From NCBI RefSeq assembly GCF_053078305.1, contig NZ_CP166879.1: a stretch of 64,000 nt of DNA. One strand, given 5' to 3'. The translations under genes and the position numbers were made by a program. Below the pieces are notes generated by a model. It saw only the letters and a list, made by a program, of their open reading frames with translations. It searched no databases and was not told the origin of the DNA. Positions 3,511 through 46,300 of this stretch are shown here, piece after piece; the stretch's first letter is position 1, and the number at the start of each line of letters is the position of its first letter.

Positions 3511-3978
3511 ATGGCTATTGCAGAGAGAATGGGTATCTCCTCGCGCGGCGATACTTACGAAATCTGGTTGGGAGCAAACTGTTATCACTACCGCTCTGAT
3601 GGTTATGCAGTGCTTCTGAAAGAAGGCAGGAATCGTGCTTATCCATGTCGGGTGACGAGTGAAACGATTAAATCTGCGCTGGCAGCAATTGTTGAATTGC
3701 AACAGAAATTAACTGCGGCAGAGAAGAAAAAGGAGTGTGAGAACCACGGGGTTCTTTTGCCAGCTGAGATGTTAATTCGCTGTCTGGAAGATCAAACAGG
3801 GGGACGGTGGATCCGTGCACATGAACCAGTAATGCTGATGAAACGATTAATCAGTAACCTGAAAAAAGCCAGACCAGAATGTACCGTTCCTGATGAAGCG
3901 CTGGCATATCTCCGGCGTAACTGTCTGGTGAATATGGGCGATATACCCGTTACCAGCAGACGGATGTCTGACGTATAA
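3511..3978 (+). CDS. hypothetical protein (155 aa)
   Basis: Track ORF. ATG follows AAAGGGGAA in the end of the upstream gene. Confidence 0.5.
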   Translation: MAIAERMGISSRGDTYEIWLGANCYHYRSDGYAVLLKEGRNRAYPCRVTSETIKSALAAIVELQQKLTAAEKKKECENHGVLLPAEMLIRCLEDQTGGRWIRAHEPVMLMKRLISNLKKARPECTVPDEALAYLRRNCLVNMGDIPVTSRRMSDV

Positions 3979-3995
3979 CAAAAAGGAAAAGTGTA

Positions 3996-4571
3996 ATGAC
4001 ATTACCCGTAGACAGCCTGATTGCGTACACGCTGGAAAAAATGCAAGAGCGGATAGTGCAGAAAGGCCGACAACAGGACGGAAAAATACAAAGCGGACTG
4101 CTGTTTACCGGAAATGTGCATGATGCCATTCCGCGTCGACTGCTTCTGGATACTCGACTTTCTCCGCTGGATAAGATGGCGTGGATGATGATTCGGCTGT
4201 ATGCACAGAATAATGAAGGTGCAGTTTTCCCCACATATGACGAACTGCAACTGCAGCTTGCTTCCCCGGGGAAAGGAAAAGCCTCCAGGGAGACTGTCAG
4301 CCGGGTGCTGCTGATGCTGCGGATCACGGGCTGGCTGAGTCTGTGCAAACGGGTGCGTGATGAGAAAGGGCGGGTACGGGGCAATATTTATGCCCAGCAC
4401 GATGAACCGGTGACGTGCCGGGATGCTGAAATACTGGATCCACGTTATCTGGATATGGTGGCAGATGCCTGTATGAGCCGGAACCGGACCATAAGTCAGA
4501 CGGCCCGGGATATTCTGTGCGAAATAAAAAATGATCCGGGGATGCGTCATTATCACAGCCATATCAGTTAA
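3996..4571 (+). CDS. winged-helix replication-initiator-like protein (STY4528-type island replication protein)
   Basis: RBS AAAGGAAAAG. The central segment LSPLDKMAWMMIRLYA...FPTYDELQLQL...SRETVSRVLLMLRITGWL looks like a wHTH DnaD/Rep-type fold. Family name from memory. Confidence 0.5.
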   Translation: MTLPVDSLIAYTLEKMQERIVQKGRQQDGKIQSGLLFTGNVHDAIPRRLLLDTRLSPLDKMAWMMIRLYAQNNEGAVFPTYDELQLQLASPGKGKASRETVSRVLLMLRITGWLSLCKRVRDEKGRVRGNIYAQHDEPVTCRDAEILDPRYLDMVADACMSRNRTISQTARDILCEIKNDPGMRHYHSHIS

Positions 4572-4610
4572 CTGGAAGCCCGGATAGGGAGTGCCCAGAC
4601 ACCGGGACAG

Positions 4611-5240
4611 ATGGCGGCCCGTCAGCGGGTGACTGAGGACCGAATGCAGCCGGGTTCGGAAACCGAACCGGGGGTAGAAACACAGAGTTCGGTATTGAAA
4701 ATGCTGAGTTCGGATTCCGAACTCAGTGAAAAACAGGGGCAAAAAATACTGAGTTCGGATTCCGAACCATCAGAAAAATCAGAAGGTTATCACAGAGTTC
4801 GGAAACCGAACCATTACGTACGTAATATCACACACAGTGTGATTAAAAACACGTACGTATTGCCTGAAGCGCTGACAGGGCAAATCAGGGAGGAGGAGGC
4901 CATTATGCTGACCAGTCAGTTGCAGGCGCTGCCGGAAGAACTGGCGCAGGGGGTTCTGGAAAGTCTGTCAGGGATGCTGGGCAGCCACTCGCTGCAGAAT
5001 CCTGTGGGCTGGTTGCTTGCAGTGCTGAAGCGAGCCCGGGAGGGAAATTTTTATCCGCCGAAGCAGAAACAACGTGTTGTTGTGCCAGCCTCCGTACTGG
5101 CAGGAGAAAGGGGGCGAGCTACTGCGCAATCAGTTTCATCGGGGAAACGTACGGAACCGATTTCAGCAGAACGTCTGAGTGGCATTGTGGCTGGATTACG
5201 GGCCTCGCTGCGCAGATGTTCTGCGATGAGACCTGAGTGA
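4611..5240 (+). CDS. hypothetical protein; the 5' third contains palindromic iterons, C-terminus NPVGWLLAVLKRAREGNF
   Basis: Track ORF. The low-complexity repeat KMLSSDSELSEK/KILSSDSEPSEK is caused by the DNA palindromes. The coding status of the 5' part is uncertain. Confidence 0.4.
   Translation: MAARQRVTEDRMQPGSETEPGVETQSSVLKMLSSDSELSEKQGQKILSSDSEPSEKSEGYHRVRKPNHYVRNITHSVIKNTYVLPEALTGQIREEEAIMLTSQLQALPEELAQGVLESLSGMLGSHSLQNPVGWLLAVLKRAREGNFYPPKQKQRVVVPASVLAGERGRATAQSVSSGKRTEPISAERLSGIVAGLRASLRRCSAMRPE
4654..4811. repeat. four dyad-symmetric iterons GTTCGGAWWCCGAAC plus one half-site
   Basis: Cores at 4654-4668, 4708-4722 (23-bp perfect palindrome 4704-4726), 4753-4767 and 4797-4811. Half-site at 4687-4692. 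Further palindromes TTACGTACGTAA and ATCACAC-ACA-GTGTGAT follow at 4814-4845. Confidence 0.8.
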
Positions 5241-5351
5241 TTGCGATACGGGCTATGTTCGCGGGAATAAAAATCAACCAGTGCCGCCAGCGACTGGTTA
5301 AAAAGAAAACAGAATCGGGAACTGGTCAGGTGAAACAAGGTGGTAAATAGC

Positions 5352-37714: not shown

Positions 37715-39233
37715 ATGACCACAAATAACTATCTGGAATATTTTCTGACTCTGCTGGGCTGGGTGGTGAATAACGGTCTGTGGAATGTGTTGATCAGCAC
37801 AGGACTGTTTGCCCTGCCACTGGCATTCAGGATCATCGGGATCTGGCTGAAAGTCAGGGAAGAAGGTGCGGATGAGGGAAACAAAGGGATGCTTTCCCTG
37901 CCGCGTATTGAGCATGTTCTCTATGGTGCTTTTTTTGTGATGATATCCTGCTGTGTTCCTCTGGTACAGGTGACGCTGGATACGCTGTCATTCGATAAAT
38001 CCAGGGCACAGACCTGTGGGGTATGGACACCTGAAGAGCCCGGAGAGACGGGGTACAGTGGGGTGATCAGCAGTATAGGGGATCAGACTGCTGCAGCCCC
38101 GGTATGGTGGGTGGTGGTTCATAAATTGTCGAAAGGTGTCACCCAGGCGGCAGTGGCTTCGATTCCGTGCCGGCCTGATTTGCGCCAGTTGCGTTTTGAG
38201 ATCCAGCGAACGTTTATAGAAAACAGGGCACTTGCTGATGAGCTGCAGGACTTTATGAACGACTGTTATTCACTGGCACTGTATGTGGAAACAGCGTGAT
38301 CAGGGGCAGAGTAAAGATAAAAAAGTGCTTGATGATATCTCCTGGATAGGGAGCGCCACATTCATGCAGGGGGATTACGGGACGCTGCAGTCAAAGATGC
38401 CGCGGGCTGCGTTCCCGTGGAATACAGCACGTGACAGCGGACGACCGGATACGGGGCGGGGAGGCTATCCGACATGCCGGGAGTGGTGGAGTGACAGTAG
38501 TGTGGGGCTGAAAAAACGGGTCATGGAGGAGGTCAGTGACCATTACTGGTTACGTCTGTCAGCTGCAATGAAGATGATTGGCAGTAGTCAGGTGGATTAT
38601 AAGGAGGAGGTGATCAAGCGTCTGGTGAGTCCGGCAAACCTGACGCTCTCTCAGGGGGGAGAGGTGTATCGTGGCTATGGTGGCAATGCAGATATGACGA
38701 CTATGAATGCGGTGGCCCGGATTGCGGGAACGGCGGGCAGTGCGGTAGCAGCACTGGGTGCGTTTCCGGCACTGGATGCAATGCGGCAGGCACTGCCGAT
38801 GGTACAGTCGATAATACTGATGGCGATTTACATCATGATACCGCTGATTCTGGCGTTTGCGGCATATGAACTGTCGACGTTAATCACACTGACGTTTGTG
38901 GTGTTTGCGGTACACTTTCTGACGTTCTGGTGGGAGCTTGCACGGTGGCTTGACAGCTGGATGCTGACGGCGCTGTACAGTTCGGATACACATACCCGGT
39001 TCAATATGATGGGATTCCAGAACACATCGGATGATCTGATAATGAATCTGGTGATGGGGACAATGTTTCTCGTCTTGCCGGCAGTGTGGCTGGGTGCGTT
39101 GTCCTGGGCTGGGGTGAATATGGGCTCTGTGGTTGGTGATACTTTTGGAAAAAGTACAAGTCATACCTTTCAAGCTGCATCAAAAAGTGGTGATCTTGCA
39201 TCTAGTGGAATTTCAAAAGGTATGAATAAATAA
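37715..39233 (+). pseudogene. traG: TraG-like (F-type TraG N-terminal domain) mating-pair protein, split into two frames
   Basis: 194-aa and 316-aa ORFs overlap at 38283-38299 in different frames. The downstream frame is open only from 38259 and ATG 38283 has no RBS. The two sum to about 510 aa, the size I recall for intact homologues. Confidence 0.5.
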
Positions 39234-39701: not shown

Positions 39702-39965
39702 ATGAAACCAAATATCCATCCTGAATACCGCACAGTAGTGTTCCATGACACGAGTGTGGATGAGTACTTTAAAATAGGTTCTACCATCAAAACAGAGCGC
39801 GAGATTGAACTGGACGGTGTGACGTATCCGTATGTGACGATTGACGTTTCCTCCAAATCGCATCCGTTCTATACCGGTAAACTTAGAACGGTGGCATCAG
39901 AAGGCAATGTTGCCCGCTTTACTCAGCGTTTTGGTCGTTTCGTTGGGACTCAGAAGGGGGAATGA
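39702..39965 (+). CDS. ykgM: ribosomal protein L31 type B (zinc-independent paralogue)
   Basis: [31 protein letters not shown]...[20 protein letters not shown] is near-identical to E. coli YkgM as I remember it and lacks the CxxC zinc motif. Confidence 0.9.
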
Positions 39966-40105
39966 TGAAAGTGCTTAATTCTCTGCGAACGGCCAAAGAG
40001 CGACCTCCTGACTGTCAGATAGTGAAGCGCAAAGGGCGATTGTATGTAATTTGTAAATCCAATCCTCGTTTTAAGGCTGTTCAGGGACGCAAAAAAAAGC
40101 GTTGA
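39965..40105 (+). CDS. ykgO: ribosomal protein L36 paralogue
   Basis: Not in the track (46 aa). [46 protein letters not shown]. The start overlaps the ykgM stop by 1 nt. Confidence 0.85.
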
Positions 40106-40320
40106 TTCCGAAGCTTGTACATAGACTGTGAGCAGTGCTCAGACATGATTTATGTCGGTACATTAGCATTGATGTGTGTCGGCATTAATTAATTTTTGTG
40201 GATGCGTTCTATCATTCATATCTTCCTGTGCTTTGCTGCTTGATGGGAAATCCTCTTCCAATATCACGGCGATGTTCACTTTTTGCGTAAGTGGACATCG
40301 CTGCGTATTTTTTGTTAGTT

Positions 40321-40584
40321 GGGGTTTGAGGCTCAGTGGAACAATAACCGCCGTTAAGCGGTCATTTTAAATAGCCAAAAATCAACCCAAAAATCAACCA
40401 GCCAATTTACATCGTGAATCTGCGTTCTTGGCTATCTGTTTTGGGGGGGCCAAGTTGGCTTTAGTCATCCTGGCCGTTTGCGGAACAAAAGACGTTGTTG
40501 ATCTCAACAGATTGATTTACCTGTTATTGACCATTCAATTGAACCGCTTAACCGCCTTTTGAGTTCCACTACTCCCCAAACCCC
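40321..40584. mobile_element. Tn3-family-derived miniature inverted-repeat element (TIME), 264 bp
   Basis: Terminal IRs GGGGTTTGAGGCTCAGTGGAAC...GTTAAGCGG and (reverse) GGGGTTTGGGGAGTAGTGGAAC...GTTAAGCGG resemble the Tn3 38-bp IR. 5-bp direct repeat TAGTT at 40316-40320 and 40585-40589. No transposase. Confidence 0.8.
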
Positions 40585-40588
40585 TAGT

Positions 40589-41683
40589 TTAGTTTTTAGT
40601 TTCCAACGGTGGTAATTTTTCAAGTGTCAGTAGTTCCTGCCCCTTTACCCGACGGCATTGGGAAGCTGCATCCTGAAGTTTTTCGCGAACGTTATTATCA
40701 TAGTCGGGATCCAATAGTTGGTATTGAAGACTATCTTTGTATGATTGAATGATATTTAGTGGACAGATAAGGCGTATATCACCGAGTGAATAAAGTTTTA
40801 CTGCCTTAAGTAAATAGTATTTTTCATCTGAAGAGCGAGCACTCTGCCAGGCTGAGTTTCTGAAATATTCAGCAGGATATGAGGTGGTCGGTATTCCATA
40901 AACATGAGGAGTCAAGTCCATGATTCCTGATATTTTAAGGAAAATAGTTAGTATTAGAGCTGGAACCATATGCACAAACGTAAAAATGAAGGCTAATATT
41001 CCAGCCATGATTCCGCCAGTCACAATTACCTGATTTAGCAAGCTGGTGCGGGTTCTTAACCTGAGGAAAACAATACAGGGAATAAGTGAAAAAATAATCA
41101 GAAGAATTGATAATACTATAACACTCAACACCTGCCAGAACTCGTTTATTCCTTCCGGGAATTCCAACGTATGAAGAAATAACTCAAGAGGAATAATATA
41201 TATGCAGGCTGCGTGGGTGAATAGCGTTGACTGTACAATATGCATGGAAAGAAACTTTTTGATCTGCTTCCACTTACCCTCTGTGCTTATCTGTCTATAA
41301 GTAATAGAGCCATTGAGACACAGAGAAAGTATAAAACTGCAAATCCAGATAATGCTTAACTGAAGTAGCACATATTGTTCAATTTCTTTTCCTGCGTTGT
41401 ACATGAGGAAAAAATAACCAAAAAATATCAGTGTTGATAATAGCGAGGTCAGAAGAACGATTTTGATGTTGTTTTCCGTCAGTTCATTCCGGAAATCACT
41501 TTCCCCTGGATAATTGGAAATATAGAATCCTGCCACTAGTGAGGGCATAAATAACGCCATGCAAAATAGGAGTACGCTGATACAAGCAAAGACCATCAGA
41601 TAACTGAACAATGATGAAAAAGAAATACTGTCAAAAAAAAGTCCTGTTTGTCCAATACGCGCAAGATGTGACCATATAAACAA
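40589..41683 (-). CDS. polytopic membrane protein (364 aa), unknown function
   Basis: About 8 hydrophobic segments plus a roughly 90-aa soluble C-terminus; AT-rich. Confidence 0.5.
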   Translation of the reverse strand: MFIWSHLARIGQTGLFFDSISFSSLFSYLMVFACISVLLFCMALFMPSLVAGFYISNYPGESDFRNELTENNIKIVLLTSLLSTLIFFGYFFLMYNAGKEIEQYVLLQLSIIWICSFILSLCLNGSITYRQISTEGKWKQIKKFLSMHIVQSTLFTHAACIYIIPLELFLHTLEFPEGINEFWQVLSVIVLSILLIIFSLIPCIVFLRLRTRTSLLNQVIVTGGIMAGILAFIFTFVHMVPALILTIFLKISGIMDLTPHVYGIPTTSYPAEYFRNSAWQSARSSDEKYYLLKAVKLYSLGDIRLICPLNIIQSYKDSLQYQLLDPDYDNNVREKLQDAASQCRRVKGQELLTLEKLPPLETKN

Positions 41684-41881
41684 TGCTACAATAGAAGTTG
41701 ACGCGATCGGTGTAAGGATTGTTAAAAACCAAGCACATAGTTTTATAAAATGTTTGTTTACTCTGTAATTTTCTATATTTTAGTGTCCATTCAAAGTTTG
41801 ACATATGATCTAGCTAATGACTCCATTTTTGGGCATTGCTTACCAACATACCTCTTATGTGTATTACTGTGAAGGAGAACG

Positions 41882-41998
41882 ATGAATAGCGACTATTCAC
41901 GTGGATCTCCACAACAACCATCAATATTCCAGCCATTATCATTCCCGGTATCCTTACCGGCATTACCTGTAGAATCGGTTATTGTTGTTGCCCTATAA
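41882..41998 (+). CDS. possible 38-aa small protein
   Basis: Strong RBS GAAGGAGAACG before the ATG. Not in the track. MNSDYSRGSPQQPSIFQPLSFPVSLPALPVESVIVVAL. Confidence 0.2.
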   Translation: MNSDYSRGSPQQPSIFQPLSFPVSLPALPVESVIVVAL

Positions 41999-42026
41999 CA
42001 CACTTTTGTGGCTATAACGTTTATAG

Positions 42027-42521
42027 CTATCGACAAAAAACCATATTAATTCTTTTGGAAAAAAGAAAATAAGGTATCCATATAACAACACCAAATATTC
42101 CACTCACTAATAATCTGATATTATCTGAATCCAGCTGTACGTCAAAAAGAATAGCCGGTAATAAAGTAAGATAGAGAGCAATAATCAGTCCTGTTGCATA
42201 ATAAGCGATCATGGCTTTTCGAGTTCCTTTTTTGCGTCTGAAAAACAACCACGTTGCATAAAGGGAAACAATGAATCCACATATCAGCAACACAAATGCC
42301 CCCATAGCGTAATAAGATAAAAAGCCAGTTTCATTGAAATAATTGAATGCAGTTATGGTAAAACTGTAAAGTTCAATAGTACTACCAATAACACCCAAGA
42401 TAAGTCCCAGAGCAGGAAGATATAATAGTCCATTAATTTTACTTAACTCTTCTCTTTCACAGGCATCACACAATCCCGACTCTTTGTTTGCTTCTGACAT
42501 TTTACATTTTATACATTCCAT
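42027..42521 (-). CDS. DUF2569-like membrane protein with an N-terminal CxxC...CxxC zinc ribbon
   Basis: CIKC...CDAC followed by four TM helices. The layout resembles YdgK/DUF2569 (from memory). Confidence 0.5.
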   Translation of the reverse strand: MECIKCKMSEANKESGLCDACEREELSKINGLLYLPALGLILGVIGSTIELYSFTITAFNYFNETGFLSYYAMGAFVLLICGFIVSLYATWLFFRRKKGTRKAMIAYYATGLIIALYLTLLPAILFDVQLDSDNIRLLVSGIFGVVIWIPYFLFSKRINMVFCR

Positions 42522-42606
42522 TTTTTATTCCATTATTCATTGCGTTACGATAATGTTTAGTTTTTTAAACATCCCCCACCACATGTATGGGGATTGTTGC
42601 AAATCT

Positions 42607-42862
42607 CACTTAGGATCTGATGGTGTTTTCTTACGGGAGTTAAATTTATCTATTAAATTAAATACTATTGTAGCTAATGTTATTGCTGTTCCTGCTATAC
42701 AACCAAAAACGATAGCTCTTTTAAACTGATTCACTGGAAAATAAAACCCATCACCTTTAAAAAATAAAAGATTGAAACCGCCCCTCCCAGAAATAGTAAC
42801 ATGACTATAGATGATAAACAGCTATAAAGGAACAATATCACATAACTATATAGTTGTTTCAT
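42607..42862 (-). pseudogene. cdiI: orphan cdiI homologue, frameshifted
   Basis: DNA and protein homology to cdiI 43100..43348 in two different frames: N-terminal MKQLYSYVILFLYSCLSSIVMLLFLGGAVSIFYFLK, C-terminal GDGFYFPVNQFKRAIVFGCIAGTAITLATIVFNLIDKFNSRKKTPSDPK. The shift is near A6 at 42759-42764. Confidence 0.65.
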
Positions 42863-43061
42863 TTTTTCTTATCCTCTGACGAACCTTTCGGTTTATTGAG
42901 TTATTGGCTCCTTCAGGTAACTCACCTTTGGCAAGTTTATCCAGTCCTGCCTGCTTCTGTTCCGAGGTGAGATTATTGGCATCAGCATACTGATTCCATG
43001 AGGAAACCGCCTGACCATAACTCACCATTCCTGATGGAAGACTGAGCGAGTTATTCTCAAC
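42846..43061 (-). pseudogene. orphan cdiA-CT remnant (VENN plus about 45 aa of CT, toxin core deleted)
   Basis: VENNSLSL...SSWNQYADANNLTSEQKQAGLDKLAKGELPEG parallels the cdiA sequence VENNALSF...TSWNKYAVDNNLTPEQTQAGLDKIAKGDMPDS, then ends after 17 unrelated codons. Confidence 0.65.
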
Positions 43062-43099
43062 AACAATCCTAACCGCAAAGGTTGGGATTGTTGTTAATC

Positions 43100-43348
43100 T
43101 CACTCAGGATCTGATGGAGGTTTTTTACGAGAATTAAACTTATCGATCAGATTAAAAACTATCGCTGCTAGTGTTATCGATGTACCTGCTATGCACCCAA
43201 ACACAATAACTCTTATCATTTGGTGGGTCGGGAAAAAAAAGAATCCTTTTGTTAGGTAAATAAATAAAGCTCCTCCCCCCATCAAAAGAAATCCACTGAT
43301 GATACAAAAGAGGCATGCATATATGAACAATACAATGTAAGCAATCAT
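43100..43348 (-). CDS. cdiI: CdiI immunity protein (82 aa, integral membrane)
   Basis: 4-nt overlap with the cdiA stop. Hydrophobic helices IVLFIYACLFCIISGFLLMGGGALFIY and VIVFGCIAGTSITLAAIVF. Confidence 0.7.
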   Translation of the reverse strand: MIAYIVLFIYACLFCIISGFLLMGGGALFIYLTKGFFFFPTHQMIRVIVFGCIAGTSITLAAIVFNLIDKFNSRKKPPSDPE

Positions 43349-46300
43349 TTCCCCTCCTCCTTCTTCGCGCTAGAAGAGAACTGATTATTACTACTTGCTT
43401 CTTTTATATATCCACCAAGAAATTCACTACCAAAAGATCCTGTCGCATCAAATATAAATCCCGGAAACTCTTTCCCAGTAACTGAGTTTACTATTCCGGG
43501 AGCATATACTCCAAATGCTCCACCCAATCCGGCCCCGGCAGCAGCCCCTCCAATAGAGCCTGTATTTGGACCATCGGTAAAGAATGCACCACCCATCGCA
43601 ATTCCGACGTTTTGTCCGACAGTTCTCCCCGGCGCAAGCATACCCGCAATGCCTGAACTGGCACTGCTTTTCCAGTCCCAGTTTTTGTTTTCATTACCTG
43701 GCTGGCTTAAATCAAACCACTGGTAACTTCCATTGGCTATCTCCGCGACGACTCCACCACTGACCATTTTACCGACCGAAGCAGCAGGCCCCAGATACCA
43801 TGCCCCGGCAATCATTACACCATCCTGATATCCATCCACGATCACTTTCGTGATATTGGTGCTGTCCGGCATATCACCTTTCGCTATCTTATCCAGTCCA
43901 GCCTGTGTTTGTTCCGGTGTCAGATTATTGTCCACCGCGTACTTGTTCCATGATGTAGCCGCAGCAGCATTGCTTTCAAAACCATCACCGAAGCTGAGCG
44001 CATTATTCTCAACCGTCGTCTTACCTGACTGTGCTCCGGCTACCGCTGAAGCTCCCGAATCTCCCACCAGACCACCGGCCAGGCCGGCAGCAACCGTTGC
44101 CAGTGTCGAGACCGTCTGCTTCTCTGTCCCGCTCAGTTCACTCACCGGCTTACCGTACATCTGTGTGGCTATCATTCCCACCACCTCGCCGGTGGCTGCG
44201 CCTGCGGCACCAGCCAGAGCATTCTTACCCTGTGCCAGAGACAGGGCTGCATTCACTACTGCATGAGCTGCCACACGTCCCGCACCGTCCGGGGTGGTCT
44301 GTTTGATAATTTCAGCAATATACGGTGCTGCACCACCTGCCAGGGCTGCACTCAGATTACCGCCGGCCAGCCCCTGTACTGCTGCCGTTGCGGCCTGTAT
44401 CGCCTGCTGGTATTTGCCTCCCGTTCCAAAACCTGAGGCCGCCATACCGTTATTGTAGGCCCGCTGCGCCACATCCTGTTCCGTGAACGGTTTTCCTGCT
44501 GCCTCAAGCTCCTCACGGGCCTGATTCAGTGCTGCCGGGTCCCGCTTCGCTTTCTCACCAGCTATCTGGCCTTCCGTTCTGGCAATATCTGCCACCTGGT
44601 TACCAATCTCACCAATGAGCTGCGCCTGCTGCAGTCGCTGCTGCTCTTTTTCCCTGTCAAAGATGGGGGACAGCGTCTGGTTTGCATGTGCTGCGTCACG
44701 GTTCAGGTCTGCCACATCCTGTTTCTGGCTCTGCGTATCCCGGATGGTGATATTCCCGGCAGACACAGCCGACTGAGTGGTGCTTTCTGCATGGCCTTCA
44801 TGATTTGCACCAACCAGCAGATTGTTGGCCATATTTCCCGCGAACTGGCCACCGATGCTGCCGCCAGTGCTGATACCCACGCTCTGGTGTTCAACTTTGT
44901 AATCAGCACGATTTTCGATATCACGGAAGCCCAGTGTACCGGTATCCAGCCGGTTTTTATCTGCCGTTGCCGTGGACGCAATCACCGCACCGTTCAGTTG
45001 CGTATGCTGTCCGGTGGTGACATCAAACCCGCCCCTGCCGGCAAAAATCCCCGTCTGCTCCTGCACACTGTCATAGTTACTGTGCATTTTATCCCGGCTG
45101 AGGCTCACACTCGCCGAACCGCTCATGGACCCGAAAGTGAAGCTGCCTCCGGCACTGGCATTCTGCTGCTTACTGTCATAACGGTCACTGTCCTGCTCAC
45201 TGGTCAGTGTCAGATGACGACCGGCATCCACTTTCACCGTTTCACCGCCGGCCTGCACGCCGGTAAGCGTGGTGTCCCGCCCGCTGATAATGGTCAGGCG
45301 GTTTCCCGCATCCACCGTGGTTTCTGTATGGGTGGTACCGTTGCCTTTTTCACTGCCCTTACCCTGGTTTGCGCTGGCTGAAACACTGATACCCCAGCCT
45401 CCGGCCCCCACACCGATACCGACACCCACACTGCCGCCACTGGATGAGTTCTTTCCTTCCAGCTTTGACGTGTTTTCTGCTGATACCAGATTCACGTCAC
45501 GGTTTGCCTGCAGCAGAACGTTGTTCCCTGCCTTTATCTGACTGCCCTGTATCGTCAGGTCACCATCCACGTCCTTCACGCCGGAGCCGGTGGCCTGAAT
45601 ACTGAGGTTATTACCTGCGGTCAGGGCGCTGTTCTTCGCCACCGTCTGCTCTGACTGCTGTTCTGATTTCGAAGACTGGCTGCCGTAAGAGAGGCTGATA
45701 CCCACGGCATTGTTATTCTCTTTCTGGTTGCCCTGTGCTTCTGCCAGTCGTCCGGCCTGCACGGCCTGAGCCCCCGAGAGCGCGGCCTTCACCCCCTGCA
45801 GGGCTTCAAGCCGGCTGTTTCCGGCAGATTTCGCCGCCTGCACGGTCTCCACCGTCGTGTTCAGGGCGCTGCCCACTGTGCCGGACAGGGCAAGCGTCAG
45901 ACCGGAGGTTTTCTGCTCCACCGAATGCGTCTGCACATGCCGGTCTGTGACGGCGCTAATGCTGACCTCCTTACCACTGAGTGCCATGTCCCTGCCGGCA
46001 ATCAGGTCAGCACTGTTGGCGCTCAGCCGGTTACCTGCCTGAAGGGAAACATCACCGTGAACACTCCCCACCGTGCTGCCTTTCTGTGTGCTGTCTGTTG
46101 CGGTGTCCGTGACTTTCAGACTCTGGCTGCCCACACTGAATCCCACACCTCCGGAGCTCATCAGCCCGGATTTTTTCTCCTGTTTCAGGTGTGTTTCACG
46201 GTTGCTTTCTGTCAGCGTGCCGATACTCAGGTCATTTCCGGCAGCCAGGGAGACACGGTTATCCCCGGCCACACTGCTGCCCGTGACGTTCAGATTATGT

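Follow-up and report, generated by a model that had tools for sequence, protein, structure and literature searches.

The question raised by this locus is what a 264-bp sequence bounded by inverted repeats is, and how it came to lie directly behind the stop codon of a membrane-protein gene. The sequence occupies positions 40321-40584 of the 64,000-nt stretch of contig NZ_CP166879.1 (assembly GCF_053078305.1) which was analysed as a whole and is called the window here, and it is flanked on both sides by the pentamer TAGTT (40316-40320 on the left and 40585-40589 on the right). The original prediction, made from the letters alone, had described such an element with Tn3-type ends, no coding capacity and TAGTT on either side, and the sequence confirmed this description. 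We consider it highly probable that the sequence arose by deletion from a Tn3-family transposon and is a non-autonomous Tn3-family miniature element (TIME), or Tn3-type miniature inverted-repeat transposable element (MITE).

The element starts with GGGGTTTGAGGCTCAGTGGAACAATAACCGCCGTTAAG (from 40321) and ends with CTTAACCGCCTTTTGAGTTCCACTACTCCCCAAACCCC (to 40584). A repeat finder detected inverted arms of 61 nt each (40321-40381 and 40524-40584), which are 70% complementary. The canonical 38-bp inverted repeats (IRs) within these arms, the left one on the + strand at 40321-40358 (GGGGTTTGAGGCTCAGTGGAACAATAACCGCCGTTAAG) and the right one on the - strand at 40547-40584 (GGGGTTTGGGGAGTAGTGGAACTCAAAAGGCGGTTAAG when read inward), are identical at 28 of 38 positions and show the GGGG...GTTAAG signature of Tn3-type ends. 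The 38-bp terminal repeats are the sites that are bound and nicked by Tn3-family transposases. The 22-nt motif at the left end occurs once in the 64-kb window, where shuffled sequences predict no occurrence, and no second related end was found in the window either by blastn with the element or by a scan for GGGG-N30-TAAG.

Homologous loci without the element showed that it had been inserted. In Klebsiella, Lelliottia and related bacteria (loci L028, L031, L032 and L034), the neighbouring gene encodes proteins 81-84% identical to the 395-aa membrane protein, and its stop codon runs without a gap into sequence colinear with the left flank in the window, including a terminator-like hairpin. These empty loci hold a single AACTA, the reverse complement of TAGTT, and on the gene strand the window sequence from which the element is removed (GGAAACTAAAAACTAAACTAACAAAAAATACGCAGCGATGTCC) aligned with L034 (GGAAACCAAAAAGTAAACTAGCAAGAAATGCGCAGCGATGTCC) without any gap. 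The 264 bp together with the extra pentamer are therefore a true insertion with a target duplication relative to the empty homologous sites. Note that the right flank reads TAGTT TAGTT TTTAGTT and is of low complexity, so that the 5-bp match taken alone is less improbable than 1/1024 and is weaker evidence than usual. The insertion point is located between the stop codon of the 395-aa gene and the hairpin with its following T-run (40267-40303, + strand), which lies 11 bp past the stop codon in the empty-site homologues; the right TAGTT shares its last base with the stop codon, of which it is the third base, in agreement with the predicted position just past the stop. The gene of 364 aa given in the prediction is one of 395 aa in other strains.

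Among close relatives no empty site was found: the complete E. coli genomes with the locus and ten further contigs encoding the identical paralogue of ribosomal protein L31 were all occupied. The element and its flanks match a locus on the chromosome of E. coli STEC1585 with 100% identity, and a wider 1.6-kb stretch is 100% identical also in two more chromosomes of Shiga toxin-producing E. coli (STEC) of bovine or human origin. The locus in STEC1585 is annotated as an integrative conjugative element ('integrating conjugative element protein', a TraG N-terminal-domain protein, an integrase-domain protein and ArdC), and the Pfam domains found in the open reading frames (ORFs) of the window (TraC_F_IV, TraG_N, Ribosomal_L31 and DUF2569) agree with a conjugative element. 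The whole locus is found on four complete E. coli chromosomes, and a fifth has a copy whose left side is truncated. Fifteen copies of the locus, all occupied, are 99.8-100% identical over a 464-bp stretch, and a sixteenth occupied copy, in E. coli O22:H8 strain 154, reaches 98.4% identity across the wider 1.6-kb stretch, whereas the closest copy of the element outside this locus is only ~94% identical. The insertion is thus fixed in every sampled copy of the conjugative element, and the relatively recent insertion that had been proposed from the intact duplication was not supported.

The source of the sequence was indicated by BLAST matches confined to the end of the element, which led to a plasmid of enterotoxigenic E. 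coli where such an end precedes a gene for a serine recombinase and a disrupted gene for a Tn3-family transposase. The autonomous relative is ~3.87 kb long with the order IR-tnpR (207 aa)-tnpA (994 aa)-IR, and is intact in the Salmonella plasmid NZ_OP927727 (L005), where it bears its own 5-bp duplication (AAATC); in Citrobacter meridianamericanus BR102 (L007) both tnpR and tnpA are full-length and the flanks have no duplication. Pfam recognized Resolvase and HTH_7 in TnpR and DUF4158 and DDE_Tnp_Tn3 in TnpA. The transposon is annotated merely as 'Tn3 family transposase' and 'recombinase family protein', and its fragments are present in Shigella, E. coli and Yersinia plasmids. Positions 1-155 of the element are colinear with the left IR and the whole spacer between the IR and tnpR of this transposon, the homology stopping ~8 bp before the ATG of tnpR, and the left IR and subterminal ~66 bp of the transposon are ~85% identical to the element; at the other side, the last ~70 bp of the element align with the right end of the transposon. 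The colinearity at both ends indicates that the element is a deletion derivative from which precisely tnpR and tnpA are missing. The related TnpA has 59% identity to an 'ISXc4 family' transposase and 45.6% to Tn3 TnpA, and the element derives from a distinct tnpR-tnpA lineage and not from Tn3 itself. The autonomous transposon found here is a relative of the parent and not demonstrably the parent.

The interior of the element contains the motif AGCCAA/TTGGCT four times (element positions 53, 80, 108 and 135), while the window-wide frequency gives an expectation of 0.046 per 110 bp, and the autonomous transposon shares three or four of the motif positions (about 53, 68, 116 and 124-137 in the 252-bp copies). 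The retained spacer (40359-40475, + strand) is a probable resolution (res) site, its pattern resembling that of a multi-subsite region for resolvase binding. A 12-bp tandem duplication (CCAAAAATCAAC twice; 40375-40398, + strand), found by the repeat finder and in the alignment, lies between the first two motifs and, among the copies examined, is restricted to those at this conjugative-element locus; because of it the element is 264 bp long here in comparison with 252-255 bp elsewhere. The right subterminal region (40476-40546, + strand) is kept among the miniature copies, and over its last ~30 bp it is similar to the corresponding right subterminal part of the autonomous transposons. Across the family, the copies have no conserved ORF that begins with a start codon. 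A small open frame in the right half (40470-40562, + strand), which ends in ...ILAVCG(T/A)KDVVDLNRLIYLLLTIQLNRLTAF* and is seen in many copies, was rejected as a gene, since a conserved start is lacking, the upstream frame shifts from copy to copy and the frame is interrupted in Erwinia; we take it as a probable relic.

Several candidates for a closer autonomous parent were rejected. H90, H91, L049 and L051, which had matched at an end only, proved to be truncated miniature copies interrupted by insertion sequence (IS) elements, and the Tn3-family transposase beside the L056 copy is unrelated (23% identity, with a different IR). In that record (NZ_CP045713.1), the gene of this different transposase, apparently intact, is found at 3857-5252, 1.1 kb from the miniature copy, which combines a left IR equal to that of the autonomous transposon with a right IR identical to that of the element in the window. 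Literature on ISYps3, ISEc63, Tn2502 and ISSfl3 as possible names of the parent yielded nothing usable.

A search for other copies of the element showed that the family is widely dispersed. Matches were present in 286-287 plasmid records, 142 of them full-length, and in 188 of 5,426 complete E. coli genomes (3.5%), with 192 places on plasmids and 6 on chromosomes. The full-length copies are mostly on E. coli ColV-type plasmids (~94% identity; for example pAPEC-O2-ColV) and on pO113-like STEC plasmids (~92.6-92.8%), and sub-families with 72-82% identity were found in Salmonella, Enterobacter, Serratia and E. coli. Scans of species-representative genomes and metagenomes added further copies from Erwinia, diverged copies from Citrobacter and Photorhabdus, and several more sites. 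Fifty-five matches in Shigella are left ends of the autonomous relative and not miniature copies. An identical deletion junction (…TTGGCC|GTTTG…) and the ~252-bp architecture are shared at at least 16 different sites in E. coli, Salmonella, Enterobacter, Serratia and Erwinia.

The order miniature element, DUF2569 gene and CdiA-type toxin gene is common to the conjugative element (40321-43400) and pO113-like plasmids (L002, NZ_CP027453.1). The DUF2569 region is 97-98% identical between the two, while the miniature element is only 92.6% identical, and this contrast could mark an exchange between the conjugative element and plasmids close to the miniature element. In L002 (6001-6427), the miniature copy lies, with no duplication, directly between the last 57 codons of a tnpA of this transposon lineage and a truncated VENN pre-toxin (CdiA) fragment. 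In Photorhabdus (L010, 1719-2716; L014, 2393-~3130), the left end and res-like spacer are again present, with ~700 bp of other DNA behind them; L010 has an IR-like end ~1 kb from the start, and the right-end match of L014 is weak (score 31 vs 62). The Photorhabdus units may be small cargo-carrying non-autonomous relatives.

From these observations, the following course of events can be proposed. The element has kept both 38-bp IRs and the ~115-bp segment from the left IR to the resolvase gene, and has lost tnpR and tnpA. A related autonomous transposon would have supplied the transposase in trans, and replicative 'paste-and-copy' transposition would have brought the element into the AT-rich target TAGTT directly after the stop codon of the 395-aa gene on the integrative conjugative element, with duplication of the 5 bp. 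The cointegrate would then have been resolved either by the serine resolvase of the parent at the retained res-like region or by homologous recombination, and the copy would since have been passively inherited with the conjugative element. Such a mode of action is what the literature already describes for TIMEs.

The terminal repeats were compared with those of known transposons. The left IR matches the IR of the L005 transposon at 32 of 38 positions and the right IR at 31 of 38. Against the Tn3 IR the corresponding values are 31/38 and 25/38, so the likeness to the classical Tn3 repeat that had been noted for the left IR was confirmed, and the right IR is not Tn3-like. The positions common to the left IR and the Tn3 IR include the block GCTCAGTGGAAC, and the interior of the element has no similarity to the blaTEM transposons Tn3 and Tn2. 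Cross-mobilisation of the element by Tn3 TnpA may be possible. The identification of the 38-mer used here as the Tn3 IR rests on established knowledge and on its verbatim occurrence in 2,842 of the 5,426 E. coli genomes and in sequences printed in 25 papers, several of them vector or construct studies; the single genomic context opened for it (H170) is an IS26-truncated remnant and does not itself show a Tn3 end. The asymmetry between the left and right IRs is kept in the Erwinia copy, indicating that it is old and not a result of decay in the window copy.

Several results weigh against the origin proposed above. Perfect duplications flank only two of ~16 distinct full-length sites, namely the window copy (5 bp) and the copy on Salmonella plasmid pSA20080453.1 (L055; 6 bp, AATTAA), and the others have unrelated flanks, so that direct signs of transposition as a miniature unit are absent from most copies. 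Unrelated flanks would be expected if copies had recombined with one another, had transposed within one molecule or lay in mosaic DNA rich in IS elements, and missing flanking duplications were also noted for MITESen1 (PMC13367494). The ends of the element are only 28/38 alike, and those of the nearest autonomous relative match them at 31-32/38. The transposases of Tn3 and Tn1000, the ends of which are about as different, are not known to cross-complement, and the autonomous relative is accordingly no more than a candidate source of the cognate transposase. The assignment of the res site is drawn from position and repeated motifs, and in this copy the 12-bp duplication falls within the region. 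Furthermore, an intact autonomous relative was absent from the 5,426 complete E. coli genomes, in which only fragments occurred, the best covering 81%. For the mobilisation in trans by a Tn3-family transposase that the original prediction had suggested, the window holds no resident agent: tblastn with TnpA and TnpR detected no Tn3-family tnpA or tnpR gene in it. As no cognate transposase was present in the window and none was intact in complete E. coli genomes, the element is probably immobile in its present hosts.

These results also bear on other ways in which the sequence could have arisen. A full-length transposon might have been inserted here and have lost tnpR and tnpA in place, in which case the miniature form never moved; the element is indeed a deletion derivative of a tnpR-tnpA transposon, and the full-length relative in L005 makes the same kind of 5-bp duplication. 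However, the same junction and ~252-bp architecture at at least 16 unrelated sites in several genera indicate that the deletion is older than the dispersal, and no full-length allele was found at the site among the 16 sampled occupied copies, which makes an in-place deletion most improbable. A chance inverted repeat, or an intergenic repeat of the repetitive extragenic palindromic (REP) or enterobacterial repetitive intergenic consensus (ERIC) type unrelated to transposons, would draw on the low complexity of the flank, in which TAGTT occurs three times and makes the 5-bp match weak. This explanation was ruled out by the empty sites and by the alignment to the autonomous transposon, and we regard it as hardly credible, because the left-end motif is expected zero times by chance and the element is homologous to the ends of an annotated tnpR-tnpA transposon, and because the comparison with the empty sites shows an insertion and hundreds of related copies exist, mostly plasmid-borne.

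A further explanation is that the element is retained for a function, either as a hairpin in the 3' untranslated region that stabilises or terminates the mRNA of the membrane-protein gene, or as a portable res site through which the conjugative element and plasmids recombine. The predicted RNA fold of the element is strong (-109.9 kcal/mol, z = -8.4), the element separates the stop codon from the former terminator hairpin, it is fixed in the 15 copies compared over 464 bp, with 99.8-100% conservation, and the gene order shared with pO113-like plasmids would suit a site of recombination. If the transcript of the gene reads through, it would fold the element into a long hairpin. Such a hairpin is, however, an automatic by-product of inverted repeats. 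Conservation inside one recently spread lineage of conjugative elements is no proof of selection, and the homologous loci function without the element. Rfam gave no significant match (one match at chance level, E = 0.16, lies outside the element), and no sigma-70-like promoter was predicted in the element or in the spacer of the parent. We saw no evidence of co-option and judge it very unlikely. It is also rather unlikely that the retained IR-to-tnpR segment acts as a working portable res site, with the copies on the conjugative element and on ColV- and pO113-type plasmids as recombination hot spots. If it did, chromosome-borne conjugative elements and plasmids could be fused, or could exchange DNA, at these sites through the resolvase of any related transposon, and both the shared order of miniature element, DUF2569 and CdiA genes and the lost target duplications of most copies would be explained.

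As a deletion derivative of a Tn3-family transposon, the element was compared with the known TIMEs. Isoforms in ISfinder are more than 95% identical. The element cannot be identified with IS101, MITESen1, TIME244/MITEEc2 or IMU, since its global identity to each of them is 51-54% in either orientation, which is the background level; the reference sequences of TIMEs were those in Table S2 of PMC13367494. These four are the TIMEs of Enterobacteriaceae given by Gomi and Yano (2026), who found ISfinder to hold only three enterobacterial MITEs in January 2026 (PMC13367494). Nor did we find a name or a printed IR for the element in the literature searched. The family was defined by Szuplewska et al. 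(2014) as elements mobilisable by Tn3-family transposons (PMC4133298), and the element has the features of the class: ~38-bp Tn3-related ends, a length of 264 bp (the class covers ~50-500 bp) without a transposase gene, a 5-bp duplication (6 bp in the L055 relative), and dispersal into at least 16 distinct flanks. Its predicted RNA fold of -109.9 kcal/mol falls within the range of -70 to -115 kcal/mol reported for TIMEs (PMC4133298). The duplication together with the empty sites is indirect evidence that the element may be mobilised in trans.

The closest known element in design is IS101 (TIME-IS101), a 209-bp element of pSC101 which was reported to be mobilised by Tn1000 and to have a working res site (PMC4133298; PMC13367494). 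Both consist of two Tn3-type 38-bp ends around an internal resolvase-site region, which is a putative one in the present element, encode no protein and would be expected to form cointegrates which are then resolved. In contrast, the two share nothing beyond the generic IR signature (either IR of the element matches the IS101 ends at 22-26/38), and the parent lineage of the element is not Tn1000 but a tnpR-tnpA transposon in which the two genes point the same way; for the element, mobility and res function are predictions. MITESen1 (256 bp), TIME244/MITEEc2 (244 bp) and IMU (288 bp) resemble the element in size, Tn3-family ends, a mostly plasmid-borne location and the frequent lack of duplications, and a res site was proposed also for TIME244, but with 51-53% whole identity and ends matching at 17-21/38 they belong to different families. 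In descent, the closest is the unnamed tnpR-tnpA transposon, which differs from the element in being autonomous and in having ends that are 37/38 alike.

Thus the kind of element is well known, and this widespread family was not found to be named. TIMEs are easily overlooked by annotation pipelines, and the record of STEC1585, the one complete record inspected, has no annotation across the element. The family is at least as common in E. coli (3.5% of complete genomes) as the four named TIMEs are in Enterobacteriaceae genomes (0.06-2.3%; PMC13367494). It is found on a conjugative element as well as on major ColV- and pO113-type virulence plasmids, and seems to have escaped notice; its recognition helps to explain plasmid mosaicism. 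It is tied to an identifiable tnpR-tnpA lineage and is a candidate for a second TIME bearing the resolution site of its parent.

The effect of the insertion on the locus is small: the coding sequence of the neighbouring gene is intact and the gene is only parted from its former terminator hairpin. This gene (40589-41776, - strand) encodes a hydrophobic protein of 395 aa without a Pfam match, which is annotated as hypothetical in other strains, and the version in the window is identical at 394 of 395 residues, with Ile in place of the initial Met. A T-for-C difference at 41774 changes the start codon from ATG to ATA on the gene strand, so that the ORF list shows a protein of 364 aa (40589-41683) which starts at a downstream TTG. 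An exact look-up of this 364-aa product found no match, as a consequence of the same change. The window also lacks a base or two at ~38281 in comparison with other copies of the conjugative element, and the gene for the 506-aa TraG N-terminal-domain protein is split there into ORFs of 194 aa (37715-38299) and 316 aa (38283-39233), which reflects either a broken transfer gene in this copy or a sequencing error. Finally, positions 39702-40105 encode L31 and L36 ribosomal-protein paralogues, which the matching E. coli record labels 'type B', an unusual cargo for a mobile element.

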